Sequence record: NC_041874.1
Strand: one strand, 5' to 3'
Source of the DNA: Escherichia phage JMPW1
DNA length: 49,628 nucleotides
Shown here: one piece after another, positions 106 through 49,542 of the stretch
Layout of the letters: every line of letters starts with the position of its first letter
How positions within the stretch are numbered: position 1 is the stretch's first letter
Program-made: the position numbers and the translations under genes
The notes under the pieces: generated by a model
Told to the model about the DNA's origin: nothing
The model's input: the letters and a program-made list of their open reading frames with translations, nothing else
Databases searched by the model: none

Positions 106-120
106 TAGCAAAAAGTGCTA
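106..120. promoter_or_regulatory. palindrome TAGCAaaaagTGCTA (operator-like, no -10 at the usual distance)
   Basis: Perfect 5+5 inverted repeat. Flanks match the consensus ATAGCACTTTTTGCTAAAA on the minus strand. Lies in the large divergent control region. Confidence 0.5.
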
Positions 121-1055: not shown

Positions 1056-1098
1056 TAGCACTTTTTGTTAAAACCGGATCGGGATAACGCGGTATAGT
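1056..1098 (+). promoter_or_regulatory. palindrome-promoter cassette
   Basis: TAGCActtttTGTTA, 22-nt spacer, TATAGT 1093-1098; hairpin GGGATAAC/GTTATCCC spans the -10. Confidence 0.55.
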
Positions 1099-1129
1099 TA
1101 TCCCATCAACAACGAATGAGAAAACGAAG

Positions 1130-1324
1130 ATGGAAACGCAAATTGACGTAGTGGTTGTTCAGCGAGACTCAACTCATGAAAAGGGTCTGTTTAAGAAGGG
1201 AACGGAAATCACGATCGACCTTGAGGATATGGTTGCTTATCACTCTGGACTTACCTGGAACGTGGTGCGCGTAGGCAGCGACTATAAACTCAAAGGCTTT
1301 AACACTTACTTTGCAGAGGCTTAA
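1130..1324 (+). CDS. hypothetical early protein (64 aa)
   Basis: ORF directly downstream of promoter cassette 1056-1098; GAGAAAACGAAG leader. Confidence 0.55.
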   Translation: METQIDVVVVQRDSTHEKGLFKKGTEITIDLEDMVAYHSGLTWNVVRVGSDYKLKGFNTYFAEA

Positions 1325-1326
1325 TC

Positions 1327-1797
1327 ATGACAACCATTACCGTATTTCTGGCTAAAGATGAGATTGATGGCGAAATGTCATTCTTCGCATTTGAGCACAA
1401 AACCGGATCGCACTGGCATATGTATAGCCGCTACACGGTTATCGATATCAACTCATACCGCGCAGGCTCACTTACTGAAAAGCTGGGTTGCTTCATTGGA
1501 GCTATCAAGGTGAACAATGGCTGCGAGTGGGCAGATGAGCACGAAGAGCGCCGCATGTGCAATATGATTAACCCGGTCTATCTTGAGTCGTTCGAGCTTG
1601 ATGCTGATGTGAACATTAAGGTGAGAAAGTCTGGTGAGTTATTGCCAGGGATGCGTGTGCTGACTGGTTACTCGGGCCGTAAGGTGTGGCGCACCGTATC
1701 GAAGATTCGCCAGCGTTCTGCAACATGCTACAGCGTATTCTTTGAAGATGGCTGGAATATGATGTCCGGTAGTGAGGTGAAGTATCTCACCAAATAG
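1327..1797 (+). CDS. hypothetical early protein (156 aa)
   Basis: Starts 3 nt after upstream stop; its TAG stop is the TAG of the next palindrome. Confidence 0.6.
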   Translation: MTTITVFLAKDEIDGEMSFFAFEHKTGSHWHMYSRYTVIDINSYRAGSLTEKLGCFIGAIKVNNGCEWADEHEERRMCNMINPVYLESFELDADVNIKVRKSGELLPGMRVLTGYSGRKVWRTVSKIRQRSATCYSVFFEDGWNMMSGSEVKYLTK

Positions 1798-1837
1798 CAC
1801 GAATTGTTAAAACCGGATCGGGGTATCTTGCTATAGT
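1795..1837 (+). promoter_or_regulatory. palindrome-promoter cassette
   Basis: TAGCAcgaatTGTTA, 22 nt, TGcTATAGT 1832-1837; hairpin GGGGTA/TACCCC. Confidence 0.55.
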
Positions 1838-1875
1838 TACCCCATCGAAACGAGATACCAATCAGAGGAATAACC

Positions 1876-2106
1876 ATGTCAATCGTCAAGAACCAGCAAG
1901 CAATCGATTAAACCAATAACAACCGCTTTGCTATTTTCATCACATCGATAGGTCGCCGATTTGCAGTCAAAGCCGTTCCGGGTGGATACAAAACCTACAT
2001 GGAAGATAAAGGAAAGTGGGTGTGGTGCGAAAACCTTGCAAACTTCCTAGTCTGGAATGCAGACCTCCAGGGCTTTGATGATATCAGCACCTTAATTGAG
2101 GAATAA
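1876..2106 (+). pseudogene. early gene interrupted by in-frame TAA (codon 12, 1909-1911)
   Basis: Canonical cassette leader ACCAATCAGAGGAATAACC-ATG. After an 11-aa ORF the same frame stays open for 64 more codons (TNNNRFAIF...STLIEE) to TAA 2104-2106. Confidence 0.45.
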
Positions 2107-2112
2107 ATAATT

Positions 2113-2340
2113 ATGCCACGTTACAATAAACAGACTAAACTCACCCGCGTAAACGGGCACATGATTCCGGCTGAATCCACTCACTACGCAATGGGCGCAA
2201 AGCACGGAGTCTATTTCAAGTGGCGCGGTCAATGGAACTTCACGGCGGTTAGTAATTTCTACATGCGCGTCCCAGGTATTGACCCGCAGACGGTCGTAGA
2301 GGACTCAATCGGCAACAACAAGATCGAGGTGCTAAAATGA
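2113..2340 (+). CDS. hypothetical early protein (75 aa)
   Basis: ORF track; ATG 7 nt after preceding stop. Confidence 0.55.
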   Translation: MPRYNKQTKLTRVNGHMIPAESTHYAMGAKHGVYFKWRGQWNFTAVSNFYMRVPGIDPQTVVEDSIGNNKIEVLK

Positions 2341-2447
2341 ACTTCAATACAATTGCTTTATGGTCTGCCGTCTGGTTCTTCTGTATGGGTCATGTCATGG
2401 TTGGAATCGTAGTTATGCTGCTACTGTGTGCGGGAGCGTTCGAATGA
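2337..2447 (+). CDS. putative 36-aa single-pass membrane peptide
   Basis: ATGA start/stop overlap with upstream gene; MNFNTIALWSAVWFFCMGHVMVGIVVMLLLCAGAFE is almost entirely hydrophobic. Confidence 0.3.
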   Translation: MNFNTIALWSAVWFFCMGHVMVGIVVMLLLCAGAFE

Positions 2448-2617
2448 TGCGCATTCTGATTTGCATGATGGCGGCGGTCGCACTGGCTATCCTGGTAGTG
2501 TCCGGCTGCGGAGAGGCCAAAGAGCGATGCCATGAAACCGGAAACCAGGTTACTACTTTCGTGATGGTTGGCAACGTATTGCTACCAATCACATCAAATG
2601 AAATCACTTGCGAATAG
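2444..2617 (+). CDS. small putative lipoprotein (57 aa)
   Basis: ATGATG overlaps upstream TGA; signal peptide MMRILICMMAAVALAILVVSG-C with lipobox VSGC. The longer 2360 start in the ORF track is less likely. Confidence 0.45.
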   Translation: MMRILICMMAAVALAILVVSGCGEAKERCHETGNQVTTFVMVGNVLLPITSNEITCE

Positions 2618-2626
2618 GATGTTAAA

Positions 2627-2818
2627 ATGGCTGATTTTATGCACCAAATGATTGCAGTATTCAAAGGTAGTGATGACCAGGAGGTGAAAGAGTGCTTTAC
2701 TGTAGACAAGCCTTATAGCGCATCGCTAACCAGCTTCGGGAATATCTCATTGCTTGATGATAACGGCGACCCCTGGGTATTCGACGAAGACACTGATTGC
2801 TTCGAAATTAAAGAATAG
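2627..2818 (+). CDS. hypothetical acidic protein (63 aa)
   Basis: ORF track; D/E-rich; TAG stop lies inside next palindrome. Confidence 0.5.
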   Translation: MADFMHQMIAVFKGSDDQEVKECFTVDKPYSASLTSFGNISLLDDNGDPWVFDEDTDCFEIKE

Positions 2819-2858
2819 CACTTTTTGTTAAAACTCAATATCGGGGTTGCGCTATAGT
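2816..2858 (+). promoter_or_regulatory. palindrome-promoter cassette
   Basis: TAGCActtttTGTTA, 22 nt, TATAGT 2853-2858; hairpin GGGGTT/AACCCC. Confidence 0.55.
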
Positions 2859-2889
2859 AACCCCATCGACAACAAACGAGGACACTAAC

Positions 2890-3378
2890 ATGAAAATCAA
2901 ATTGCTTTGCACTGGCGGTTACAAGGGCTTTACTCGCGACCTGGAAGCGGATCCTATCGTGATTGATGCGGTGAAGTGTGATGATAGCCTCGGCGGCTAC
3001 CGCGTGAAGGTTGACGACCTGGTGAAAGCTGGCGTGTACGATCTGGGCTATGGACTTTCGGTTAGCCCGGTAGTTGGTCCGGCAGACTTCAACGAGAAGG
3101 ATGGAACGATGTTCTTCTTCGAATGGGAAGTCCAGGCAAATCCTAAGCCGCGCAAGGTTCGTCTTCTCAGTAATGGCGGCTACCCGATGCGTCCAGGTTA
3201 TGAGAATCGCACATTCCCGGTTATCGTTGACTTTGAAGAAATCACCGCACACTTAGCTTATATCAACGGTGAACAGCTTCATGCTGTTGGATTCGTGGGA
3301 TGTATGAATCAAGAGGCGCTATGCTTCTTCCATTGTAAAGCCGAGCCGTTCGATATTGAGTGCGAGTTAGTATACTAA
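2890..3378 (+). CDS. hypothetical protein with internal tandem duplication (162 aa)
   Basis: Follows cassette 2816-2858. Repeats KIKLLCTGGYKGF...PIVIDAV and KVRLLSNGGYPMRPGY...PVIVDFE. Confidence 0.6.
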   Translation: MKIKLLCTGGYKGFTRDLEADPIVIDAVKCDDSLGGYRVKVDDLVKAGVYDLGYGLSVSPVVGPADFNEKDGTMFFFEWEVQANPKPRKVRLLSNGGYPMRPGYENRTFPVIVDFEEITAHLAYINGEQLHAVGFVGCMNQEALCFFHCKAEPFDIECELVY

Positions 3379-3419
3379 GCACGAATTGTTAAAAGGGGAT
3401 TTGGCCTGACTGGTATAAT
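3377..3419 (+). promoter_or_regulatory. palindrome-promoter cassette
   Basis: AAGCAcgaatTGTTA, 22 nt, TGgTATAAT 3414-3419; hairpin GGGGATT/AATCCCC. Confidence 0.55.
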
Positions 3420-3449
3420 CCCCGCATAAACCACTAAGAGGAAAGCATC

Positions 3450-3956
3450 ATGTTAAAATTAGAAGACGTAAAATTCCCGATTAAATTTATCAGCCTAGGT
3501 TGCGGTGAAATTACATTCACCAGTGAAGATAAAGGCAAGTGGGACAATGATAAAATGTCTCAGCTTAAGTTGGATTGGTTTATCAATCGGCACAATGAAG
3601 TAAATCCTGAAAACTCAGCCAAGAAGGATTACCATTACATTATTAGTGGTAGTCAGGATGCGTACGAAAAGTATGATGGTTGGAAAATTGTTCGATCAAT
3701 CTTCCACCCCGCAAAGCCAGAAATTAAACCGATGTTACAATGCGCTCAGATCGAGAACATTCCATTGAGCGCGACGCTAAAAGGAGTGCAGCTTGATGAT
3801 AAATCCTGGCTTGAAATAACCGCCACGCCGAAAACTATTGAAGTGCACGACGATATCGTCACTCTTCTATTGCATTACGGCAGCTTTAAGCACAAAGCGG
3901 TATCAGGTGAAATCAGCATTAAGCGCGGAACACTTGTGCGCTATGAGGTGAAATAA
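3450..3956 (+). CDS. hypothetical early protein (168 aa)
   Basis: Follows cassette 3377-3419; AAGAGGAAAGCATC-ATG. Confidence 0.6.
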   Translation: MLKLEDVKFPIKFISLGCGEITFTSEDKGKWDNDKMSQLKLDWFINRHNEVNPENSAKKDYHYIISGSQDAYEKYDGWKIVRSIFHPAKPEIKPMLQCAQIENIPLSATLKGVQLDDKSWLEITATPKTIEVHDDIVTLLLHYGSFKHKAVSGEISIKRGTLVRYEVK

Positions 3957-4030
3957 TGGCTGCATGGGTTTTGATTATCTTAATGAGTACCGGGCCGGAT
4001 CACGTATACATGGAAAGTCAGCAATCATGA
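3956..4030 (+). CDS. possible 24-aa micro-ORF
   Basis: TAATG overlap with upstream stop; MAAWVLIILMSTGPDHVYMESQQS; very short, so weak. Confidence 0.2.
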   Translation: MAAWVLIILMSTGPDHVYMESQQS

Positions 4031-4102
4031 AACAAGGTACGGGAAGTAATTGCAGAGAATAAGCCGTTCGGATATGAAGTAAAAACGATGTGCGTTAAAC
4101 GA

Positions 4103-4145
4103 TAGCACGAATTGCTAAACCTTCCGCAAGGCCATTTGATATAGT
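4103..4145 (+). promoter_or_regulatory. palindrome-promoter cassette
   Basis: TAGCAcgaatTGCTA, 22 nt, TGaTATAGT 4140-4145; hairpin AAGGCCA/TGGCCTT. Confidence 0.6.
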
Positions 4146-4185
4146 GGCCTTATTGAAGCAAGGCAACCAATCAGAGGAATCAGCT

Positions 4186-4392
4186 ATGGCTACACGACTA
4201 ACTCAGTGGCAGATTTACGACAAGGCCTCACGCCTTCGTGAATCGCTTCGCGGACTGACGCCGAATGACCGAATGGAGATTATCGGGCACGCATTGCACG
4301 AACTAACATCTCAGGACGTAATCTATCATTCATGCGGCAATAAATTCTGGAACGTGACATTCGAGGTAAAGAAAGATGAGCAAAACTCATAA
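4186..4392 (+). CDS. hypothetical early protein (68 aa)
   Basis: ATG after conserved leader AACCAATCAGAGGAATCAGCT. The GTG 4144 start in the ORF track lies inside the -10 element. Confidence 0.5.
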   Translation: MATRLTQWQIYDKASRLRESLRGLTPNDRMEIIGHALHELTSQDVIYHSCGNKFWNVTFEVKKDEQNS

Positions 4393-4663
4393 GTTAAAAA
4401 TCGCCCCGATACATTTCATTGGTGTAATGAACGGAACCAAAACGGCAGAGTTCCGCATCAATGACCGCAACTTCCAGGTTGGTGATATCCTTGAGCTACG
4501 CGAGTTCGATCGTGACGACTTTACCGGGTGGGAAGTTCACGCCAGGGTGTCCGATGTTACAGACGTGACGCCATACATCAATCGCGGTTATGACGAGCAA
4601 GAATGCGACTTCACGCAATACGTGATGTTATCAATCAAGCCTTACAGGAAGGTTAGACCATGA
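4376..4663 (+). CDS. DUF3850 / ASCH (PUA-like) domain protein
   Basis: HKLKIAPIHFIGVMNGTKTAEFRINDRNFQVGDILELREF matches my memory of the DUF3850 N-terminal signature. Confidence 0.6.
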   Translation: MSKTHKLKIAPIHFIGVMNGTKTAEFRINDRNFQVGDILELREFDRDDFTGWEVHARVSDVTDVTPYINRGYDEQECDFTQYVMLSIKPYRKVRP

Positions 4664-5298
4664 AATTTGAGTGCGTATCAAGTAGCGGATCTGGTTTTAA
4701 GTGGGGAAAAACTTACAAAGGTGTTCGCGTAAATGATGACAGCTTCATCATTACTGATGAGAACGGTTGCAACGTGAACGTTGTACGGCGTCACGAATAT
4801 CAGGAAATTTTCCTGCCTTATGGCGGTAGCTCAAAATATATCTTCCATCGAATCGTGGATGGTGTTAAATTTAACGACGTAATCGAAGCAATCAACCAAC
4901 TGCATAATAAAGAGGTAAAATTTATGAAATTCGAATGTATCAGCGACAACACTAAAAAATTTACCGTTGGAAAAATTTACAACGTTCCTTCTGAGCACGC
5001 TAAGCACACTTTAGCGCTGACCGACGACACAGGCTGCCAACGCATTGCAACCGTGACGCACAATGGCGAAGGTCTTCGCTGGAACAGCGGCGGCACTAAG
5101 TTCGCAACTTTCGGTAAGAAGCGCAAGCGCAATTTCCGCGTCAACGGCAAGATCAACACCAGCAAGATTAGCAACGTCAAGCCTATTAATGTTGACCACA
5201 AGCCAGAGCTTGATCTTAAAGGCAAGGTGGATATTCCTGATATGGCTTTAGCGATCCTTATTCTTGTTGCTCTAATTTCTATCATGCTCATCATGTAA
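4660..5298 (+). CDS. membrane-anchored protein with two tandem MKFEC mini-domains
   Basis: Repeat 1 starts MKFECVSSSGSGFKWGKTY and repeat 2 MKFECISDNTKKFTVGKIY. Repeat 2 keeps its own AAGAGG-ATG at 4909-4926. C-terminal TM helix MALAILILVALISIMLIM. Confidence 0.6.
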   Translation: MKFECVSSSGSGFKWGKTYKGVRVNDDSFIITDENGCNVNVVRRHEYQEIFLPYGGSSKYIFHRIVDGVKFNDVIEAINQLHNKEVKFMKFECISDNTKKFTVGKIYNVPSEHAKHTLALTDDTGCQRIATVTHNGEGLRWNSGGTKFATFGKKRKRNFRVNGKINTSKISNVKPINVDHKPELDLKGKVDIPDMALAILILVALISIMLIM

Positions 5299-5305
5299 TT
5301 TTAAC

Positions 5306-5339
5306 GGGGAATTGGCTCTGAGCGGTTCCCCTTTCTTTT
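5306..5339 (+). terminator. intrinsic terminator fused to SD
   Basis: GGGGAA...TTCCCC stem then TTTCTTTTGGAG. Confidence 0.55.
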
Positions 5340-5351
5340 GGAGAAAACACT

Positions 5352-5462
5352 ATGCCAGACTTTTCTAACTGGAATAACGAGCCGCCATCATTTCAGGAGT
5401 TGCTATTCTGCCTCCTGGTCCTGACATTATCTCTTAAGGGTGTTTTATGGCTACTATCATAA
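5352..5462 (+). CDS. possible 36-aa membrane peptide
   Basis: GGAG SD fused to terminator T-run; MPDFSNWNNEPPSFQELLFCLLVLTLSLKGVLWLLS; overlaps next gene by 16 nt. Confidence 0.3.
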   Translation: MPDFSNWNNEPPSFQELLFCLLVLTLSLKGVLWLLS

Positions 5463-5665
5463 CAGCAGAAGATGCAGCACGCGACGCAGTGGAAGGAATG
5501 CGCCCAAATACCTCCAGAATAGCACACTACTACAAATCTGAGGTGTCGGCAGTGCAATTGGTCAACGAAATTTTAAGGCTACCACAAGTCGATTCAGCGC
5601 GCGTGGTGACGTGCTTAAAAAATTATTTTTGCATCGCTATTAAAACGAATAGCACGAATTGCTAA
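5447..5665 (+). CDS. hypothetical early protein (72 aa)
   Basis: ORF track; stop lies in palindrome 5650-5664. Confidence 0.45.
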   Translation: MATIITAEDAARDAVEGMRPNTSRIAHYYKSEVSAVQLVNEILRLPQVDSARVVTCLKNYFCIAIKTNSTNC

Positions 5666-5692
5666 AACCTATCAAGGGGAATGCGCTATGAT
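5650..5692 (+). promoter_or_regulatory. palindrome-promoter cassette
   Basis: TAGCAcgaatTGCTA, 22 nt, TATGAT 5687-5692; hairpin GGGAAT/ATTCCC. Confidence 0.5.
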
Positions 5693-5722
5693 TCCCATGC
5701 ACCAACAAACGAGGAAGCACTC

Positions 5723-6169
5723 ATGAAACACTTAATTTGCATTGAAACGCCTAACGACCAGTACACCCTGCACGGCATTGGAATGTTCAAAGGTCACTAC
5801 ATGACAGCAAGTATTCATGATTCGCGTTGCGTCAATGGCGATCTGATGATTACGTCAAAAGAAGTAACTCCGTACATTATGCAGAATCTTGGCAATAACG
5901 AATATATGGCCTACGGATGCAATGCGGTGTACAAGCATATCAAGATCAGAAAACGCGTTGTTCGCGCATTCAAGAAAATTGCAATGAAACAATGGAAGAT
6001 GAGCAAGAAAGATGCTGGACGCTGGGCGCGTAACGTTGCAGATTCATACTTCTACCGTAACGGTGAGTCCTGCCACTTCCTTATCGATGAACTTATGGAA
6101 AACTACGGCGGCGACTTCAGTCAGGGTGGCTTTGACGCTTGGGCTGACTACGAGGTCGATTACTGGTAA
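5723..6169 (+). CDS. hypothetical early protein (148 aa)
   Basis: ATG after ACGAGGAAGCACTC. The 5681 start in the ORF track overlaps the -10 hexamer TATGAT 5687-5692. Confidence 0.55.
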   Translation: MKHLICIETPNDQYTLHGIGMFKGHYMTASIHDSRCVNGDLMITSKEVTPYIMQNLGNNEYMAYGCNAVYKHIKIRKRVVRAFKKIAMKQWKMSKKDAGRWARNVADSYFYRNGESCHFLIDELMENYGGDFSQGGFDAWADYEVDYW

Positions 6170-6212
6170 TAGCACGAATTGCTAAAACTTGCTCAAGGGC
6201 ATTTGATAGAAT
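6170..6212 (+). promoter_or_regulatory. palindrome-promoter cassette
   Basis: TAGCAcgaatTGCTA, 22 nt, TGaTAGAAT 6207-6212; hairpin AAGGGCAT/ATGCCCTT. Confidence 0.6.
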
Positions 6213-6252
6213 GCCCTTCGTTGAGTTAAGCAACCAATCAGAGGAATAAATC

Positions 6253-6864
6253 ATGGATAAAATTACCATTTGGGGCCAGACAATCAACCTGTTTCTCGGC
6301 ACGCGCCGCGTAGCAATCTTTGACTTTGATGGAACACTTAGCGATGGATCTGGTCGACTTCACCTGCTACCTACAAAGGATTTGCACTTAACTGAAAGCT
6401 GGTCCGAGTTTAACCGCGCGGCAATATTTGACAACCCTATCCAAAGCACGATCGATGTGATGAACTCTATGTATGCCGCTGGTCATCATGTGATCATTTT
6501 AACCGGGCGAAGTGATGAGGTGCGTTACGCATCTGAGTTGTGGCTTAAGCATCACGGCGCTCGATATGATTACCTGATTATGCGACCATACACCGATAAC
6601 CGGAAAGACACAGTAATGAAAGAAGAGGCGGTGCGCGCGATCGGCATTGATAACATTCTGGCGGCCTGGGATGACTCACCGCAAATTATTCCATTATTCC
6701 GCTCACTTGGAATAACCACTTACGCTGTAGTTGACTATGGCGATAAAGTTCACGATCATTTAAAATCTCACGGGGTAGATGAGGTTTGCAATCATGAACC
6801 ATCTGAGCCGCTACCGCCATTTGGTGAGAAAATTTGCATTAAGTGCAAGGAGTTATTGAAGTGA
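6253..6864 (+). CDS. HAD-family polynucleotide 3'-phosphatase-like protein (T4 Pnkp C-terminal-domain type)
   Basis: DFDGTL motif I, ILTGR motif, RKDTVMKEEAV and WDDSPQIIPLFRSLGI. These resemble T4 Pnkp phosphatase-domain blocks (RKDDVVKEE, IDDRTQVVEMW) as I remember them. Confidence 0.75.
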   Translation: MDKITIWGQTINLFLGTRRVAIFDFDGTLSDGSGRLHLLPTKDLHLTESWSEFNRAAIFDNPIQSTIDVMNSMYAAGHHVIILTGRSDEVRYASELWLKHHGARYDYLIMRPYTDNRKDTVMKEEAVRAIGIDNILAAWDDSPQIIPLFRSLGITTYAVVDYGDKVHDHLKSHGVDEVCNHEPSEPLPPFGEKICIKCKELLK

Positions 6865-6971
6865 ACCTATACGAATTTATTGCAGCACATCCGGTACTAA
6901 CAGTTATCATTCTGTTAATCATAAACTCCACCATCATCAATGTGGCGAAATTATTTTTAGGGAGATACTGA
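6861..6971 (+). CDS. possible 36-aa membrane peptide
   Basis: GTGA overlap with upstream stop; MNLYEFIAAHPVLTVIILLIINSTIINVAKLFLGRY; its stop lies 1 nt before the next ATG. Confidence 0.3.
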   Translation: MNLYEFIAAHPVLTVIILLIINSTIINVAKLFLGRY

Positions 6972-6972
6972 C

Positions 6973-7545
6973 ATGAAAACAGCTATCATTTTAAACGGTG
7001 CGCCTGGCGCGGGAAAAGACACTATAGGGTGCATCCTGGCTGACACTTACGATCATGTAGCGCTACGCAGCTTTAAAGCTCCAATGTTTGAGATTGCCCG
7101 AGCAATCCTGGGTGAGACTAATTTTGAGTATTTCATGTTCTTGTATGAGGACCGTCGCTATAAAGAAGAGCCAGCATCAATCCTGAACGGTAAAAGCCCG
7201 CGCCAGTTTATGATCTGGATTAGCGAGGAGGTTATCAAGCCGCAGTTCGGAAATCGCTTCTTCGGTATGCGAGCGGAAAGCAAGGTGAAAGAGTCTCACT
7301 CCCTTTCGGTATTTACTGACGGTGGATTCAAAGACGAAATCTTGCAGATGATTGAAGGTGAAATCCAGGTCAAGCTATGTCGAATCCATCGCAACGGTTG
7401 CAACTTTGACAACGACAGTCGCGACTACATCTATCTTGACGATATGATCGGGGTCAACGGTTATCAGGAATGTGACTTCTTCTCTGTCGAAGGTCATCCA
7501 GAAATTACCGCTCAGCACATAGCCGCCACGTTCATCAACAAATAG
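6973..7545 (+). CDS. P-loop kinase of the phage dNMP-kinase family
   Basis: Walker A GAPGAGKDT; LNGKSP and SPRQFMIWISEE blocks resemble T4 gp1 dNMP kinase (GKDT, LNGKSP). Confidence 0.7.
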   Translation: MKTAIILNGAPGAGKDTIGCILADTYDHVALRSFKAPMFEIARAILGETNFEYFMFLYEDRRYKEEPASILNGKSPRQFMIWISEEVIKPQFGNRFFGMRAESKVKESHSLSVFTDGGFKDEILQMIEGEIQVKLCRIHRNGCNFDNDSRDYIYLDDMIGVNGYQECDFFSVEGHPEITAQHIAATFINK

Positions 7546-7585
7546 CACGAATTGCTAAAACGTCGGTGGGGTGACTTGATATAGT
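7543..7585 (+). promoter_or_regulatory. palindrome-promoter cassette
   Basis: TAGCAcgaatTGCTA, 22 nt, TGaTATAGT 7580-7585; imperfect hairpin GGGGTGAC/GTTACCTC. Confidence 0.6.
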
Positions 7586-7617
7586 TACCTCATCGACAAC
7601 GAAGAGAGAAAATCGAA

Positions 7618-7827
7618 ATGATGGTATCAACTGATAAGTTTTTCACTTGCACTAAAACTTCTGAAGTATTCGAACTGGTTCATACTGATAATGGTGACTT
7701 CATGCATGACGGTTGCGACGTTTTCATTGAAGTGAAAGAAAGCGACTATGACTATGGGGTTTATTATAACCCGGCAGTGAACACTCAGTTTTTTACACCG
7801 ATCGAAGAGGAAGGAGAAGAAGCATGA
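7618..7827 (+). CDS. hypothetical acidic protein (69 aa)
   Basis: Follows cassette 7543-7585; acidic C-terminus EEEGEEA. Confidence 0.5.
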   Translation: MMVSTDKFFTCTKTSEVFELVHTDNGDFMHDGCDVFIEVKESDYDYGVYYNPAVNTQFFTPIEEEGEEA

Positions 7828-8168
7828 TCACGATTAACCTGTCAGATAAACAAGCGCGTGAAATCCTCGATACTATCGGCGAACAGCTTCACGTAAAAGT
7901 CGCTACCGCTGAGATTCTTAACCAGATCGAAAGACAGCTAACCCCGGTGTCGACGAATCAGGCTGAGTTCTCAATCTGGAAAAGCGAGCGAATCCTGCCA
8001 AATATCATCAAGGCATGGAAGCGCAAGAATAAAAAAGAAATCAATGTTGATGACTTATTTTCTGATGAATTAAGTCCTTCAAAGGTTGCTCAATATCAGT
8101 TGCGATACATGGAATCAGTTTGCAATCAGGTTTTAAATGTCAACTTTTCATTCGGGAGTGGTAAATAA
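7824..8168 (+). CDS. hypothetical protein (114 aa)
   Basis: ATGA overlap with upstream gene. Confidence 0.5.
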   Translation: MITINLSDKQAREILDTIGEQLHVKVATAEILNQIERQLTPVSTNQAEFSIWKSERILPNIIKAWKRKNKKEINVDDLFSDELSPSKVAQYQLRYMESVCNQVLNVNFSFGSGK

Positions 8169-8398: not shown

Positions 8399-8601
8399 TG
8401 GCTAACTTACCGAAGAAAGGCGATCAGGTTCGATGTGTTACATCACGCAATGGTGATGCTTTCTCAGCGGGATGCTTGTATGACGTTGAAAAAGTAAGTA
8501 AAGCAAAGAGACTCGTATTTGTATACGGAGACGATGGAAATATTCATGAGATTGACTACCCGCAGGATATTACTAATGGCCAATTTGAAATTAATGATTG
8601 A
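8398..8601 (+). CDS. hypothetical small beta-rich protein (67 aa), mini-domain family member
   Basis: TAATG overlap; KKGDQVRCVTSRNGDAFSAGCLYDV...GDDGNIHEI resembles the MKFEC-type mini-domains. Confidence 0.5.
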   Translation: MANLPKKGDQVRCVTSRNGDAFSAGCLYDVEKVSKAKRLVFVYGDDGNIHEIDYPQDITNGQFEIND

Positions 8602-8627
8602 CCTGAATCTCTGAGCGGTGATAGTAT
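8598..8627 (+). promoter_or_regulatory. sigma70-type promoter candidate with extended -10
   Basis: TTGACC (8598-8603), 18-nt spacer, TGaTAGTAT (-10 at 8622-8627); heads a 140-nt hairpin-rich untranslated stretch. Confidence 0.4.
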
Positions 8628-8765
8628 TAATCCCGTAGACAGACGAGGCGCAAATAAGCGCAACGCGTGAGACGATTCTCACACTTCCAGCTAACAAGCT
8701 CGGTTGCATAGTGGTTAAGCAACGCCGCAGACCCGTAAGCGGCAACAATTCAAGAGGATTGCATA

Positions 8766-8927
8766 ATGCAAAAAACTAAAGACGAATCAGTCAAAATTGA
8801 AATTAAAGTAACTCGCAACGGTGAAACCACTAGTTATAAAAAACGATTAAATCCTGGCGAGGCTGTTATTGGTCGCATTGCTGGCGTTATGATTAAGGCG
8901 CAGGAAGATGAAGCGATTCAAAGTTAA
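8766..8927 (+). CDS. possible hypothetical protein (53 aa)
   Basis: AAGAGGATTGCATA-ATG; below the ORF-track length cut-off; MQKTKDESVKIEIKVTRNGETTSYKK... Confidence 0.35.
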   Translation: MQKTKDESVKIEIKVTRNGETTSYKKRLNPGEAVIGRIAGVMIKAQEDEAIQS

Positions 8928-9330: not shown

Positions 9331-9354
9331 AACCCGCTTCGGCGGGTTTTTTTA
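9331..9354 (+). terminator. intrinsic terminator (end of early region)
   Basis: ACCCGC ttcg GCGGGT followed by TTTTTTT. Confidence 0.8.
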
Positions 9355-9365
9355 TGCCTGCAATA

Positions 9366-9388
9366 TGGTAAAATAGCACTAAATGTTA
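9366..9388 (+). promoter_or_regulatory. extended -10 promoter overlapped by palindrome (terS)
   Basis: TGgTAAAAT (9366-9374); its last T is the first base of TAGCActaaaTGTTA (9374-9388), 18 nt before the terS ATG. Confidence 0.45.
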
Positions 9389-9406
9389 AACAAAGAGGAT
9401 GGATTT

Positions 9407-9931
9407 ATGAGTGAACCTAAGAACGCCCCCGTAGTCCAGGGAGGTAATTTCAAAGAGCTATACAAGAAAAAGTTCGGCACTGTTCTTGCTAAAAACCGGG
9501 CAATGACGCCTGAGCAACTATTCGATCTGTCAGTTAAGTATTTCGAATGGGCTGAGGACAACGCAATCAAGGCGTCAGAATCAGCCAGCTTTCAGGGTGG
9601 CGTTTATGAATCGCTAGTTCATAAGCCGCGAGTCTTCACCTGGACCGGATACCGACTATTCATCGGTGCAAGCGAGGCAGCAATCATTAAGTGGAAGCGA
9701 GAGGAAGAATACAGTGAGGTTATGGAGTTTGTGGAATCGGTAATCAACGAGCAAAAATTCCAGCTTGCCGCCAACGGTGTTATTAATGCCTCCTTTATCG
9801 GTAAGGATCTCGGAATCGATAAGCCAGCCTCAATCAATATCGAAAACTCGTCAGCTTCCGCATCGACAGTAGTCGCCACCACTGAGGATGCAATGAAAGA
9901 GGCAGTAAATAGCATTCTTGACATGCTTTAA
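9407..9931 (+). CDS. terS: terminase small subunit
   Basis: Immediately upstream of terL; GAGGATGG SD; FEWAEDNAIK...FTWTGYRLFIG resembles T1-type small-terminase proteins (from memory). Confidence 0.7.
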   Translation: MSEPKNAPVVQGGNFKELYKKKFGTVLAKNRAMTPEQLFDLSVKYFEWAEDNAIKASESASFQGGVYESLVHKPRVFTWTGYRLFIGASEAAIIKWKREEEYSEVMEFVESVINEQKFQLAANGVINASFIGKDLGIDKPASINIENSSASASTVVATTEDAMKEAVNSILDML

Positions 9932-16073: not shown

Positions 16074-16101
16074 TTGACGCTTTAACAAAAAGTGCTATTA
16101 T
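16074..16101 (+). promoter_or_regulatory. promoter candidate with palindrome in the spacer (capsid gene)
   Basis: TTGACG (16074-16079), 16 nt, TATTAT (16096-16101). TAACAaaaagTGCTA (16083-16097) fills the spacer and -10. A terminator-like hairpin follows, so function is uncertain. Confidence 0.3.
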
Positions 16102-19806: not shown

Positions 19807-19844
19807 CTGTAAAATCATCCTATCAACTCTATTCACTTAACTTT

Positions 19845-19859
19845 TAACAAAAAGTGCTA
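19845..19859. promoter_or_regulatory. palindrome TAACAaaaagTGCTA upstream of tail chaperone gene
   Basis: Consensus flanks are in minus orientation, 22 nt from TGaTAGGAT on the minus strand. On the plus strand it abuts the leader CAACCAATCAGGAG. Confidence 0.4.
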
Positions 19860-35264: not shown

Positions 35265-35295
35265 TAGCACTAATTGCTAAACGCTGATTTTATCA
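35265..35295 (-). promoter_or_regulatory. extended -10 promoter followed by palindrome (tail fibre)
   Basis: Minus strand reads TGaTAAAAT (35295-35287), 7 nt, TAGCAattagTGCTA (35279-35265), then AAGGAG and the fibre ATG. Confidence 0.45.
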
Positions 35296-36806: not shown

Positions 36807-36849
36807 TAGCACTTTTTGCTAAAAACGTTTACTTTATGCCGTGTATTAT
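36807..36849 (+). promoter_or_regulatory. palindrome-promoter cassette (helicase); shared divergent region with HTH gene
   Basis: TAGCActtttTGCTA, 22 nt, TATTAT 36844-36849. Confidence 0.5.
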
Positions 36850-36886
36850 AGCGTAAACGTTACAACGATTCAAAGGATTAATAGCC

Positions 36887-38905: not shown

Positions 38906-39318
38906 TTACAGACAAAGGTGATTATTTAGAGTTTTACGAGCGAGATCCCAGCGACACTCGAAAGGAGGACGCTCATCAGGTGGATTGTGTGTCCTGGCTG
39001 AAATACAATTTCCCTCACCTTCTATTTTGGCACACTGTCAATGAAGGTGAAAAAACAATCACATCAGCGCTCAGGGATGAGCAGGCCGGATTACTTAAAG
39101 GAGTGTCGGACTTCGTTATCCTGATTGGTGTTAACTCAAGATACCCGTTTGCAGCAATCGAACTTAAGCGGGTTAATAAGTCAGGCAAAGGAAAGGCGTC
39201 ACCAGTCAGCGACAAGCAAAGGGAATTTCTCAGAAAGGTCATGGAGCGTGGCGGCTTCTCTGCCGTCGCATACGGATTTGAGCAATTCAAGATCGCAATT
39301 TACGAAATGATGAAATAG
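38902..39318 (+). CDS. VRR-NUC domain nuclease
   Basis: GVSDFVIL...AAIELKR...SDKQREFL matches the D..ExK..Q VRR-NUC pattern; ATGA overlap with helicase. Confidence 0.8.
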   Translation: MITDKGDYLEFYERDPSDTRKEDAHQVDCVSWLKYNFPHLLFWHTVNEGEKTITSALRDEQAGLLKGVSDFVILIGVNSRYPFAAIELKRVNKSGKGKASPVSDKQREFLRKVMERGGFSAVAYGFEQFKIAIYEMMK

Positions 39319-39358
39319 CACTTTTTGTTAAAACTGCCGGAATGGAATCTGGCATTAT
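39316..39358 (+). promoter_or_regulatory. palindrome-promoter cassette (dam)
   Basis: TAGCActtttTGTTA, 22 nt, TGgCATTAT 39353-39358. Confidence 0.5.
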
Positions 39359-39385
39359 TATCTCACCAACACTAGAGGACTAAAA

Positions 39386-40099: not shown

Positions 40100-40347
40100 T
40101 GAACGAGAAAATGATTCCGGTTAAGTTAACTGATCAAGGTTTATGGCTGCTTTATCGAGCTACCTGCTGCGAAATTATGGAGCGAAACGGATTGACTCAG
40201 GATGTTATTGGTTGCGATCTGTGGGAGTTCACTAGTTCTCTTGATATGTCTTTCGATGAGATAAAAAATGAATACATAGAGAATTGGCCTTCAATCATAC
40301 AGAAAGACGTGGAAGAACTTAAAGCTGATACAATCGTACAGCACTAA
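40096..40347 (+). CDS. hypothetical protein (83 aa)
   Basis: ATGA overlap with dam. Confidence 0.5.
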   Translation: MMNEKMIPVKLTDQGLWLLYRATCCEIMERNGLTQDVIGCDLWEFTSSLDMSFDEIKNEYIENWPSIIQKDVEELKADTIVQH

Positions 40348-40381
40348 TTGCTAAAAATACCCGACGAAAGTCGGGTATAGT
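40339..40381 (+). promoter_or_regulatory. palindrome-promoter cassette
   Basis: CAGCActaatTGCTA, 22 nt, TATAGT 40376-40381; hairpin CCCGAC/GTCGGG in the spacer. Confidence 0.5.
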
Positions 40382-40413
40382 TATTTCATAGAAACGAAAT
40401 GAGGAATCAGAAG

Positions 40414-46393: not shown

Positions 46394-46429
46394 GGCGCTA
46401 GCTCCTGATTGGTTATCTTGAATAAGGCC

Positions 46430-46472
46430 ACTTTATCAAATGACCTTACGGCAATATTAACAAATCGTGCTA
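46430..46472 (-). promoter_or_regulatory. palindrome-promoter cassette
   Basis: Minus strand: TAGCAcgattTGTTA, 22 nt, TGaTAAAGT (46435-46430); hairpin AAGGTCA/TGGCCTT; AACCAATCAGGAG leader. Confidence 0.55.
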
Positions 46473-46911: not shown

Positions 46912-46944
46912 TTTTAATTCCTTTGTTTCGTTTGGTGTGGGAGT

Positions 46945-46988
46945 AATATACCTTACCCCCTATTGTATGTCTTTAGCAATTCGTGCTA
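46945..46988 (-). promoter_or_regulatory. palindrome-promoter cassette
   Basis: Minus strand: TAGCAcgaatTGCTA, 23 nt, TATATT (46950-46945). Confidence 0.5.
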
Positions 46989-48030: not shown

Positions 48031-48061
48031 GATTATTTCCTCGTTTGCTGCTGATGGGATG

Positions 48062-48104
48062 ACTATACCAGCCATCCCGGATGCGCGTTTAGCAAAAAGT
48101 GCTA
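48062..48104 (-). promoter_or_regulatory. palindrome-promoter cassette
   Basis: Minus strand: TAGCActtttTGCTA, 22 nt, TGgTATAGT (48067-48062); hairpin GGGATG/CATCCC. Confidence 0.6.
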
Positions 48105-48492: not shown

Positions 48493-48525
48493 TTTGTTTT
48501 TCCTCAATCTCGTTTCGATGAGGTA

Positions 48526-48568
48526 ATTATGCCAAATCGCACCGATCGAGTTTTAACAAAAAGTGCTA
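48526..48568 (-). promoter_or_regulatory. palindrome-promoter cassette
   Basis: Minus strand: TAGCActtttTGTTA, 22 nt, TGgCATAAT (48531-48526). The palindrome lies inside the last codons of the C5-MTase gene. Confidence 0.55.
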
Positions 48569-49466: not shown

Positions 49467-49498
49467 TGCCTGAGTCCTCTGATTGGTTGATGTGATGA

Positions 49499-49542
49499 AT
49501 CATACCCTGCCGACCTGGCTGAGTCGTTAGCAAAAAATGCTA
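49499..49542 (-). promoter_or_regulatory. palindrome-promoter cassette (first of leftward operon)
   Basis: Minus strand: TAGCAtttttTGCTA, 23 nt, TATGAT (49504-49499); AACCAATCAGAGGA leader. Confidence 0.5.

Follow-up and report, generated by a model that had tools for sequence, protein, structure and literature searches.

The genome of Escherichia phage JMPW1 (sequence record NC_041874.1), whose 49,628 nucleotides (nt) are the window analysed here, carries a 21-nt intergenic direct repeat (DR), an element of 21-22 base pairs (bp) of the form AAATAGCAC-N3-TTGYTAAAAC. We propose that each DR copy would be the upstream half of a cassette of roughly 75-85 nt that fills the gap between two genes. 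This portable unit would combine stop codon, promoter, hairpin and leader, and the DR would replace the missing -35 box. We put the probability of this reading at about 60%. The observations that led to it are the anatomy of the cassettes, their spacing, the statistics of the hairpin, the geometry of stop and start codons, and the position of indel junctions. The window is a complete or near-complete T1-like genome (Tunavirus) that is colinear with T1. Over its left 7 kb, the identity is 99.9% with Enterobacteria phage vB_EcoS_IME167 and about 88-91% with SH6, ADB-2 and further members of Tunavirus (Drexlerviridae). An earlier note on this DNA, which drew attention to the module, stated that it had not been described for T1-like phages. 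This is wrong, as a 21-nt repeat aaATAGCACnnnTTGnTAAAA was published for TLS, T1, Rtp and Rogue1 (PMC11447400). The 2024 re-annotation of TLS contains 18-21 intergenic 21-nt direct repeats (DR1-18) with this consensus; they are oriented with transcription, lie ~76 nt before start codons and occur with A, T or G centre variants (PMC11447400). A stoperator, an enhancer site or an UP-like element were proposed for them, and their function was left open (PMC11447400).

The eight left-arm copies of a TAGCA-N5-TGYTA palindrome that the earlier note had reported (at 1056, 1795, 2816, 3377, 4103, 5650, 6170 and 7543) were all confirmed. The pattern AGCAC-N3-TTGYTA-N22-TAnnnT has 13 exact matches in the window, these eight included, compared to 0.00 in 100 shuffles. 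The palindrome alone, with one mismatch allowed, yields 50 strand-hits in the window versus 5.8 expected. The spacer from TGYTA to the hexamer has the claimed length of 22 nt in 8/8 copies. As listed in the note, the hexamers read TATAGT (five copies), TATAAT, TATGAT and TAGAAT, and five of the eight are preceded by TGn; a G at position -14 is present in all eight. Here and below, promoter positions are numbered from a conserved A, 7 nt after the hexamer, which was taken as +1. The formula in the title of the note is correct, and the one in its body, TAGCAC-N4-TTG, is off by one: the true gap is N3, and a search with N4 matched nothing. The conservation of CATCGA(A/C)AAC near the predicted starts holds for half of the copies, as the motif follows four of the eight and is absent after the remaining four. 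The repeat's TAG, said to be often the stop codon of the upstream gene, has this function at 1795, 2816 and 7543. At other copies, a TAA stop overlaps the repeat (3377), lies inside TGCTAAAA (5650) or directly precedes the repeat (6170). The whole genome contains 21 repeats, about 17 of which have a -10-like hexamer at 22-23 nt, which is close to the approximately 19 promoters predicted. All 21 copies fit the published consensus aaATAGCACnnnTTGnTAAAA with the minor variants AAGCAC, CAGCAC and TAGCAT, and all are read with the neighbouring genes except for three antisense copies (16097, 19859, 35265).

An exact-pattern scan of IMG/VR identified 120 loci, from which 252 distinct cassettes were collected. 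The multi-copy loci are T1-like, and the median identity of their proteins to those of the window is ~50%. The 22-nt spacing holds throughout the family: the best -10-like hexamer is located exactly 22 nt after TGYTA in 193/252 cassettes and at 21-25 nt in most of the remaining ones. The position matrix of the 252 cassettes contains G-14 (86%), T-15 (49%), T-12 (68%), A-11 (91%), T-10 (77%) and T-7 (88%), and the start context is C-1 (72%) and A+1 (82%). This matrix is the signature of a putative extended -10 sigma-70 promoter with a pyrimidine-purine start. Since positions -35 to -30 read AAAACn, there is no -35 box, and a sigma-70 scan called none of the cassettes; both findings agree with the claim that these promoter-like modules lack a usable -35 element. 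In the same numbering the DR extends from -52 to -31, with -41.5 as the midpoint of the 22-bp element. The dyad is thus centred at -42, the position of class II activators, as had been deduced in the earlier note.

Several known elements were considered for the identity of the DR and rejected. A reading of TTGYTA as a true -35 box would require a spacer of 22 bp, which is too long, and the matrix contains no -10-like signal 17 bp downstream. A sigma-54 promoter (TGGCAC-N5-TTGCW) does not fit either: the DR reads TAGCAC-N3-TTGC, with AG in place of GG and a spacing that is 2 bp short. The sites of CRP, FNR, Fis, IHF and lambda CII were compared by eye and none fits. Those of SlyA, KorA and N15 Cro, compared in the same way, have only the TAGC core in common with the DR and differ in spacing.

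Canonical promoters are scarce in the regions that the cassettes occupy. A scan for -35/-10 pairs gave no excess in the left arm (23 versus 20 expected) or in the right arm (9 versus 10), and no cassette was called. No intergenic canonical promoter was found in the right arm, and the cassettes are therefore the only promoter candidates there. In the left arm, a canonical promoter precedes gene 1 alone. A model of its protein (525-1040) had an AlphaFold pLDDT of 84 and no significant fold match. For TLS, just three canonical sigma-70 promoters are given in a supplementary table (PMC11447400).

The position of the cassettes relative to the flanking genes is equally regular. The TAG of the DR is the stop codon of an upstream open reading frame (ORF) of at least 50 codons in 118/233 cassettes (51%). 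In 22 more of the 233 the TAA inside TGCTAAAA is the stop, and in 33 the stop lies 3-4 nt before the repeat. Altogether, an upstream stop is found within -4 to +13 of the DR start in 173/233 cassettes, and stop codons are supplied in two frames. The downstream ATG is located 70-84 nt past the DR start in 195/219 cassettes. The fusion to the stop codon and the fixed distance to the ATG indicate that the cassette is the whole intergenic region. Compared to T1, the window contains an additional module of a cassette plus two genes at 1054-1793, with a cassette at each border. When indels were chained in comparisons with all relatives, the junction was within a cassette in 6/11 early-region events, and in three of these the inserted or deleted module is flanked by the repeat on both sides.

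The promoter geometry described in the earlier note has largely been borne out by these data; what the note missed is a hairpin overlapping both spacer and -10. In the window, the stretch between DR and +1 forms an inverted repeat with arms that vary among the copies, for example GGGATAAC/GTTATCCC, AAGGCCA/TGGCCTT or AAGGGCAT/ATGCCCTT. In 199/231 distinct cassettes (86%), the 42 nt following the repeat fold at -5 kcal/mol or below with at least 5 bp; the mean z value is -3.1. Comparing the arms of each cassette in cis and in trans is the informative test for the hairpin: stems of at least 7 bp are formed in 111/217 cassettes, compared to about 20 after exchange of 5' and 3' halves among cassettes, which shows the complementarity to be copy-specific. 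Covariation in a fixed register (i + j = 43) showed a modest excess over permuted partners; it is weak because the register of the hairpin varies between copies. A search for compensatory changes in orthologous cassettes yielded 6 double changes, the relatives being too close.

The internal mismatches of 113 distinct helices are G·T or T·G in 33 cases and A·C or C·A in 6 (p = 1.4e-5). Each wobble would be an A·C mismatch on the opposite strand, and the ratio therefore argues for selection on the sense strand in its single-stranded form. Most likely, the hairpin acts in the sense strand as RNA, in the simplest case as part of a read-through RNA. GAAA, GAGA, GCAA and UUCG tetraloops are frequent among the cassette hairpins. 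The position relative to the -10 varies, as the hairpin either straddles the hexamer, as in the phage of the window, or fits entirely into the spacer of 22 nt. True terminators occupy the spacer in phage Chapo and in a distant relative (L136); the T-rich -10 serves as their U-tract (cccgcTTCGgcggg plus tttgcTATTAT). One of the spacer terminators of Chapo was annotated as such by the depositors. A scan of the whole window with Rfam gave no family at or above the gathering threshold.

From these observations we infer that the cassettes are active promoters, where they start, that a protein binds the repeat, and what the hairpin does. At its 5' side, the proposed cassette would have the repeat at -52 to -31, whose TAG or TAA is usually the upstream stop. 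A free spacer of 22 bp would separate it from an extended -10 (TGnTAnnnT), and transcription would start at a C-A site, ahead of a leader rich in A and C, a Shine-Dalgarno sequence and the ATG. The extended -10 would be used by host sigma-70 polymerase, and the repeat would stand in for the absent -35 box. Because its distance from the -10 does not vary by a single base pair, the DR most likely acts through a protein that binds at -42 and contacts the polymerase in the manner of a class II activator; this protein may be of phage or host origin. The exact spacing is maintained despite a drifting spacer sequence, which favours a role as a -35 substitute or a class II-like role over that of a simple operator. 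In our reading, the hairpin occupies positions that the promoter does not constrain, namely its spacer and discriminator. It would form in read-through RNA of the upstream gene and would end or protect that transcript, as a true terminator in some subfamilies and in a form lacking the U-tract in the phage of the window. The unit would thus provide stop, insulation, promoter and leader to the adjoining ORF, and the 21 identical bases could serve as recombination homology that makes gene modules portable.

The genome encodes one recognizable regulator, a P22_Cro/YdaS-like helix-turn-helix (HTH) protein whose family is confined to T1-like phages. The modelled core of this candidate DR-binding protein has an all-alpha Cro fold, which is closest to Xfaso1 and N15 Cro (TM about 0.7); its N-terminal part was modelled with low confidence. 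Throughout the subfamilies, the regulator gene is among the few with a canonical promoter, and its ATG is preceded at 5-15 nt by a reverse-complement DR; in the window this DR lies in the leader, at a distance of 13 nt. The promoters of the regulator (36845-36873, minus strand) and of the helicase cassette (36807-36849, plus strand) diverge and have -10 bases in common (TATAAT/TATTAT), a layout that is kept in all subfamilies. Owing to the shared -10 bases the two promoters should exclude each other, and the layout looks like a switch. The recognition helix is among the least conserved parts of the regulator (SNQTVQGW, THGCIEQC, NGLRMVLW and KRHRVARW), and the published "Cro evolutionary code" predicted at best 2/3 positions when applied to it. 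The most conserved parts are not the HTH; they are the basic residues 14-33, D(K/R)RxxNGNNGTRRGxDKxxR, and the C-terminal FxRPDLxFD. The invariant N-terminal motif NGNNGTRRGKDKKPR might matter instead of the helix.

Outside the T1-like phages, the repeat was found at a small number of bacterial loci. Bacterial genomes were scanned with a spacer of 21 nt, and most of the 80 hits look like chance matches in AT-rich genomes. A perfect repeat aaATAGCACTTTTTGCTAAAAa is present in three Xenorhabdus genomes (L160, Xenorhabdus sp. Sc-CR9, NZ_VDBN01000043, about 6846-7899; L187; L195). It is located downstream of ssb, 21 nt upstream of TATAAT, and has no -35 box. This putative promoter is at the right distance from a discrete RNA of ~55 nt, which ends in a strong terminator, and the next gene encodes an Abi_2/AbiD protein (Pfam 1.7e-51; PADLOC AbiD 1.8e-67). 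The arrangement is an independent case in favour of the cassette model. No homologue of the AbiD locus was found in E. coli genomes, and T1-like phages lack a counterpart. The site may be a phage-sensing promoter, or a case in which the repeat works without phage proteins. In 12 Vibrio species (L140, L150, L155, L161, L168 and others), a conserved ATAGCACAGTTTGCTAAAC-N18-TAGAAT occurs about 450 nt upstream of a porin gene and adjoins the start of a divergent gene, which was read by eye as dinG-like. Because its centre is non-canonical, this site is probably unrelated to the phage repeat. Rfam scans of the Xenorhabdus and Vibrio loci gave no match.

A BLAST search of complete E. coli genomes with short queries revealed matches of 21-26 nt in 316 F-like plasmids beside ccdAB. 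In two of these plasmids (L220 2503-2526, L221 2470-2520), GAATAGCACTAATTGCTAAAAC lies ~40 nt upstream of a gene for an uncharacterised membrane protein of 170 amino acids, which is convergent with a DUF3800 gene; in L221, a second partial copy precedes it. These plasmid sites have no -10 at 22 nt, and the 170-residue protein has no phage homologue and belongs to no Pfam or PADLOC family. Exact matches to 18 nt of the DR exist at further plasmid, island and chromosomal loci of E. coli (L222, L223, L224, L225, L226); the matches in plasmids, islands and chromosomes were counted without a rigorous background rate. On a pO157-like plasmid (L225 3002-3045), the phage-type TGcTATAGT is located 23 nt after the repeat and is followed by a canonical TTGACA-17-TAACAT promoter. 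A -10 at a distance of 22 nt is absent from most of the plasmid and island sites. The distribution of these sequences suggests that the reader of the repeat may not be phage-specific, or that mobile elements and a defence locus may have copied the phage signal.

A number of observations weigh against the cassette model. About 14% of the cassettes have no clear hairpin. The eight hairpins of the left arm have no U-tract, their tails read CATCGAAAC, and none was called as a terminator; the role of the hairpin in the phage of the window is therefore a guess. The breakpoints given by raw BLAST ends are located in cassettes in 14 cases versus 8.7 expected (p = 0.05), which is weak; the chained indels gave the clearer signal. 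Dependence on a dimeric activator, as assumed in the earlier note, is unproven and is suggested by the geometry alone. Beyond the 5-bp arms TAGCA/TGCTA the DR is asymmetric, with A-runs on the same strand at both sides (AAA...AAAA) and conserved C6 and T10, and a symmetric dimer therefore fits poorly. The DR is identical in phages whose regulators carry the different recognition helices listed above, which argues against this regulator as its binder. The literature searched contains no transcriptome and no mapped transcription start or 3' end for T1-like phages. Finally, an extended -10 can work without an upstream factor, and the DR could therefore be an operator rather than a -35 substitute. 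The lone DRs at 9374 and 16083 share bases with the -10 or the spacer region of late promoters, which are putative; they look like such operators and keep a repressor alive as an explanation.

If so, the cassettes would be extended -10 promoters that are constitutive with host polymerase, and a phage repressor, most plausibly the Cro-like regulator, would bind the DRs in leaders and over the -35 region and, in the course of infection, shut the early and middle units down like lambda Cro or the stoperators of mycobacteriophage L5. This is the alternative that we take most seriously, and we nevertheless regard it as unlikely. In addition to the two lone repeats, it would account for the fold of the regulator near N15 and Xfaso1 Cro, for the ATAGC core that the N15 Cro operator TTATAGCTAGCTATAA has in common with the DR half-site, and for the canonical promoter and reverse-complement DR before the regulator's ATG, which is a typical autoregulatory layout. 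Moreover, G-14 in 86% of the cassettes suggests that the extended -10 promoters are self-sufficient, and the Xenorhabdus locus with its antitoxin-like RNA and DR promoter would suit sensing of such a repressor. However, a repressor needs no spacing that is fixed to the base pair beside a freely drifting spacer sequence. The DR does not change even between phages whose regulators are ~33% identical, in contrast to the highly variable recognition helix; the half-sites of the DR are 5 bp further apart than those of the N15 operator; and one protein that represses both early and late promoters lacks an obvious temporal logic. We rank next, and also consider improbable, that the DR is read by the host alone, either as an unusual UP-type element bound by the alpha C-terminal domains (alpha-CTD) and sigma region 4, or as the site of a conserved enterobacterial protein; the cassettes would then be immediate-early. 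Consistent with this, the DR is invariant family-wide whatever the divergence of the phage proteins, its centre (TTT, AAT) is at the position of a proximal UP subsite around -42 and a TTG(C)TA hexamer lies inside it, and both early arms have essentially cassette promoters only. The RNA downstream of the Xenorhabdus DR and its TATAAT at 21 nt is one that an Abi toxin-antitoxin-like locus would require in the absence of infection, and at least six distinct loci of E. coli plasmids and islands carry exact DR matches of 18-26 nt, with TGcTATAGT at 23 nt in the pO157-like plasmid. The known host factors are the difficulty: CRP, FNR, Fis, sigma-54 and SlyA were compared by eye and do not fit, and no host factor is known to have such a site. 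A hexamer 22 bp from the -10 is out of reach for sigma region 4, the invariant G and C positions are unlike alpha-CTD recognition, and the majority of the plasmid and island repeats lack a -10 at the phage distance.

Two further explanations dispense with a promoter function of the repeat. The whole element could be an RNA in which the DR forms a hairpin of 5 bp with a 5-nt loop, followed by AAAAC and the second, variable hairpin; it would act as a processing, antitermination or termination signal of polycistronic early transcripts, with the "-10" as a loop or tail motif. The dimensions of the DR hairpin equal those of lambda boxB. The sense-strand selection of the variable hairpin (G·T 33 versus A·C 6), its GNRA and UUCG loops, and the C/T at position 13, where alone the arms of the DR vary and where G-C or G·U pairing is kept, point in this direction. 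We nonetheless judge it very unlikely, as the hexamer bears the sigma-70 signature A-11, T-7 and G-14, and its distance is fixed to the DR and variable to the hairpin. Furthermore, variants at DR position 1 (C or A) are uncompensated at position 15, Rfam yielded no match in the window, and the late-region DRs occur in both orientations relative to transcription. Least probable of all, and to our minds hardly credible, is a DR that is mainly a recombination substrate or a selfish repeat, spreading gene cassettes and having no direct role in expression. Indel junctions inside DRs, the duplication of the DR at both ends of modules and the stop codons in two frames conform to it, and the PeSL cassettes of T4-type phages have been proposed to act in this way (PMC2839356, PMC4122927). 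Homology-driven exchange accounts neither for a sequence that is identical across subfamilies nor for the base-pair-exact distance to the -10, the orientation with transcription and the conserved context of the start site.

Returning to the cassette with the DR as a -35 substitute, a broader version can be formulated. One conserved partner, of the host or a phage protein common to the Drexlerviridae, would bind at -42; mobile elements and defence loci would have adopted the repeat as a promoter or operator that reports infection by T1-like phages; and the cassettes would double as RNA 3'-end elements. As a whole, this combination is quite doubtful. Sites that may report infection are the promoter of the small RNA at the Xenorhabdus AbiD locus, the F-like plasmid sites beside ccdAB and the pO157-like plasmid.

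Table 1. Positions of cassettes, isolated repeats and the regulator in the window. Promoters and starts are predicted.
Feature	Position	Strand	Details
Cassette 1	1056..1129	+	DR 1056-1070; hairpin arms 1081-1088/1097-1104; -10 TATAGT 1093-1098; predicted +1 A1105; ATG 1130
Cassette 2	1795..1875	+	DR 1795-1809, TAG is stop of ORF 1327-1797; TGcTATAGT, hexamer 1832-1837; hairpin GGGGTA/TACCCC; ATG 1876
Cassette 3	2816..2889	+	DR 2816-2830, TAG is stop of ORF 2627-2818; -10 TATAGT 2853-2858; hairpin GGGGTT/AACCCC; ATG 2890
Cassette 4	3377..3449	+	Variant DR AAGCAC 3377-3391, overlapped by TAA stop of ORF 2890-3378; TGgTATAAT, hexamer 3414-3419; hairpin GGGGATT/AATCCCC; ATG 3450
Cassette 5	4103..4185	+	DR 4103-4117; TGaTATAGT, hexamer 4140-4145; hairpin AAGGCCA/TGGCCTT and outer helix; ATG 4186
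Cassette 6	5650..5722	+	DR 5650-5664; upstream stop TAA in TGCTAAAA at 5663-5665; -10 TATGAT 5687-5692; hairpin GGGAAT/ATTCCC; ATG 5723
Cassette 7	6170..6252	+	DR 6170-6184, TAA stop directly before; TGaTAGAAT, hexamer 6207-6212; hairpin AAGGGCAT/ATGCCCTT and outer helix; ATG 6253
Cassette 8	7543..7617	+	DR 7543-7557, TAG is stop of ORF 6973-7545; TGaTATAGT, hexamer 7580-7585; 15-bp hairpin 7562-7597 (z = -6.3); predicted +1 A7592; ATG 7618
Helicase cassette	36807..36886	+	DR 36807-36821; -10 TATTAT 36844-36849; 9-bp hairpin AACGTTTAC/GTAAACGTT; overlaps divergent canonical promoter of Cro-like regulator
Cassette before Dam methylase gene	39316..39385	+	DR 39316-39330; TGgCATTAT at 22 nt
Cassette with variant DR CAGCAC	40339..40398	+	GAAA-tetraloop hairpin ACCCGAC/GTCGGGT within spacer; TATAGT at 22 nt
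Right-arm cassette	46394..46472	-	DR 46458-46472; TGaTAAAGT; hairpin AAGGTCA/TGGCCTT with U·G pair
Right-arm cassette	46912..46988	-	DR 46974-46988; TATATT at 23 nt; hairpin GGGGGTAA/TTACTCCC with G·U pair
Right-arm cassette	48031..48104	-	DR 48090-48104; TGgTATAGT; hairpin GGGATG/CATCCC
Right-arm cassette	48493..48568	-	DR 48554-48568; TGgCATAAT at 22 nt
First right-arm cassette	49467..49542	-	DR TAGCAT 49528-49542; TATGAT at 23 nt; ATG 49466
Cro-like HTH regulator, 150 amino acids	36341..36793	-	Candidate DR-binding protein
Canonical sigma-70 promoter of regulator	36845..36873	-	TTGAAT-17-TATAAT; -10 shares bases with plus-strand helicase cassette -10
Lone DR	9374..9388	+	No -10 at 22 nt; starts at end of TGgTAAAAT (9367-9375), after terminator 9331-9353, 19 nt before small-terminase start region
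DR in late region	16083..16097	-	Within spacer of plus-strand TTGACG-16-TATTAT promoter before major capsid gene
Antisense cassette	19817..19859	-	DR, 22 nt, TGaTAGGAT; between major tail and chaperone genes; faces bidirectional terminator
DR	35265..35279	+	Antisense to both flanking minus-strand genes; poor hexamer TATCCG at 22 nt
DR near left end	106..120	-	No -10 at 22 nt

The repeats outside the standard cassette are included in Table 1. The order of elements at 9331-9410 is terminator, TGgTAAAAT, lone repeat, Shine-Dalgarno sequence and small-terminase ATG; if this region holds the promoter of the late operon, the DR would sit over the start site. The cassette at 19817-19859 points towards a bidirectional terminator at a distance of about 25 nt, and a very short antisense RNA could result. 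The late-region DRs at 19817-19859 and 16083-16097 are kept in T1 (18849 and 15085, respectively), and the one at the capsid gene is also present in TLS (DR7). The gene that follows cassette 2 (1876-2106) is an orthologue of T1 orf75. Because it has an in-frame TAA at codon 12, which is a Ser codon in T1, this copy is, on the evidence of the sequence, a pseudogene or the result of a sequencing error. Elsewhere in the window, a canonical TTGACC-18-TAGTAT promoter with TG is followed by an untranslated stretch of 140 nt and an ORF at 8766 (8599-8765). No Rfam family matched this region; three short hairpins were noticed in it by eye (around 8650-8665, 8668-8685 and 8703-8725). Positions 190-400 consist of very AT-rich degenerate TATATA/GATATA repeats and adjoin a promoter-like TTGTCA-17-TAGAAT at 137-165.

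Relatives of T1, itself a classic phage, are common as therapy phages and as contaminants. The function of the repeat is acknowledged as an open question in the TLS paper, and the anatomy of the cassette makes this question directly testable. According to the model, each genome should have about 17 start sites, activity should depend strictly on the spacing, and the repeat should have a binding partner. If true, it would explain the shuffling of small early genes as self-contained units. If a host protein reads the repeat, or if plasmids and Abi loci use it as a sensor, the element would be of interest beyond this family of phages.

Among known systems, class II activator sites come close to the proposed arrangement. 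CRP binds at -41.5, lambda cI acts from OR2 (-42) on PRM, and the sites of Mu Mor and C are centred at about -43.5. These promoters likewise combine a dyad site of ~20 bp, centred at -42 over the -35 region, with a poor -35 box and a good or extended -10. In contrast, the DR matches no CRP, FNR or cI consensus, its conservation is asymmetric, and its activator is putative. N15 Cro (PDB 6ON0; PMC6649833) is a structural neighbour of the phage's only recognizable regulator, and its operator TTATAGCTAGCTATAA contains the ATAGC core found in the DR half-sites AAATAGCA/TTTTAGCA. However, its half-sites are 5 bp closer, and the T1-type regulator is twice as long and does not conserve the recognition helix. 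The stoperators of mycobacteriophage L5 (cited in PMC11447400) resemble the DRs in being numerous short asymmetric sites in short intergenic regions, oriented with transcription. They differ in having no fixed relation to a -10, in blocking elongation and in belonging to a temperate phage; T1-like phages are virulent, and their DR is coupled to the -10 to the base pair.

The PeSL and PmSL elements of T4-type phages are also repeated cassettes between small variable early genes, and they comprise a promoter and a stem-loop and reach up to the Shine-Dalgarno sequence and ATG (PMC2839356, PMC4122927). Both coincide with junctions of indels and replacements, as do 6/11 early indels here. In PmSL, a Mot box is combined with a -10, that is, an activator box replaces the -35. 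PeSL elements, which belong to another phage family, have near-consensus -35 and -10 boxes, a 17-bp spacer and a stem-loop upstream of the promoter, whereas the T1-type cassette has no -35, an invariant 21-bp element 22 bp from the -10, and a hairpin in spacer, -10 and discriminator. The repeat of TLS, T1, Rtp and Rogue1 is the same element as that of the window, as is evident from the consensus, the ~18-21 copies, the orientation, the distance of ~76 nt to the start codon and the centre groups. The link of the DR to a -10, its spacing and the hairpin are new insofar as they are not described in the literature searched, which excluded the 2004 T1 genome paper. The TLS paper gives the 21-mers only; the fixed 22-nt spacing, the absent -35, the hairpin and the fusion to the stop codon are the additions of this work.

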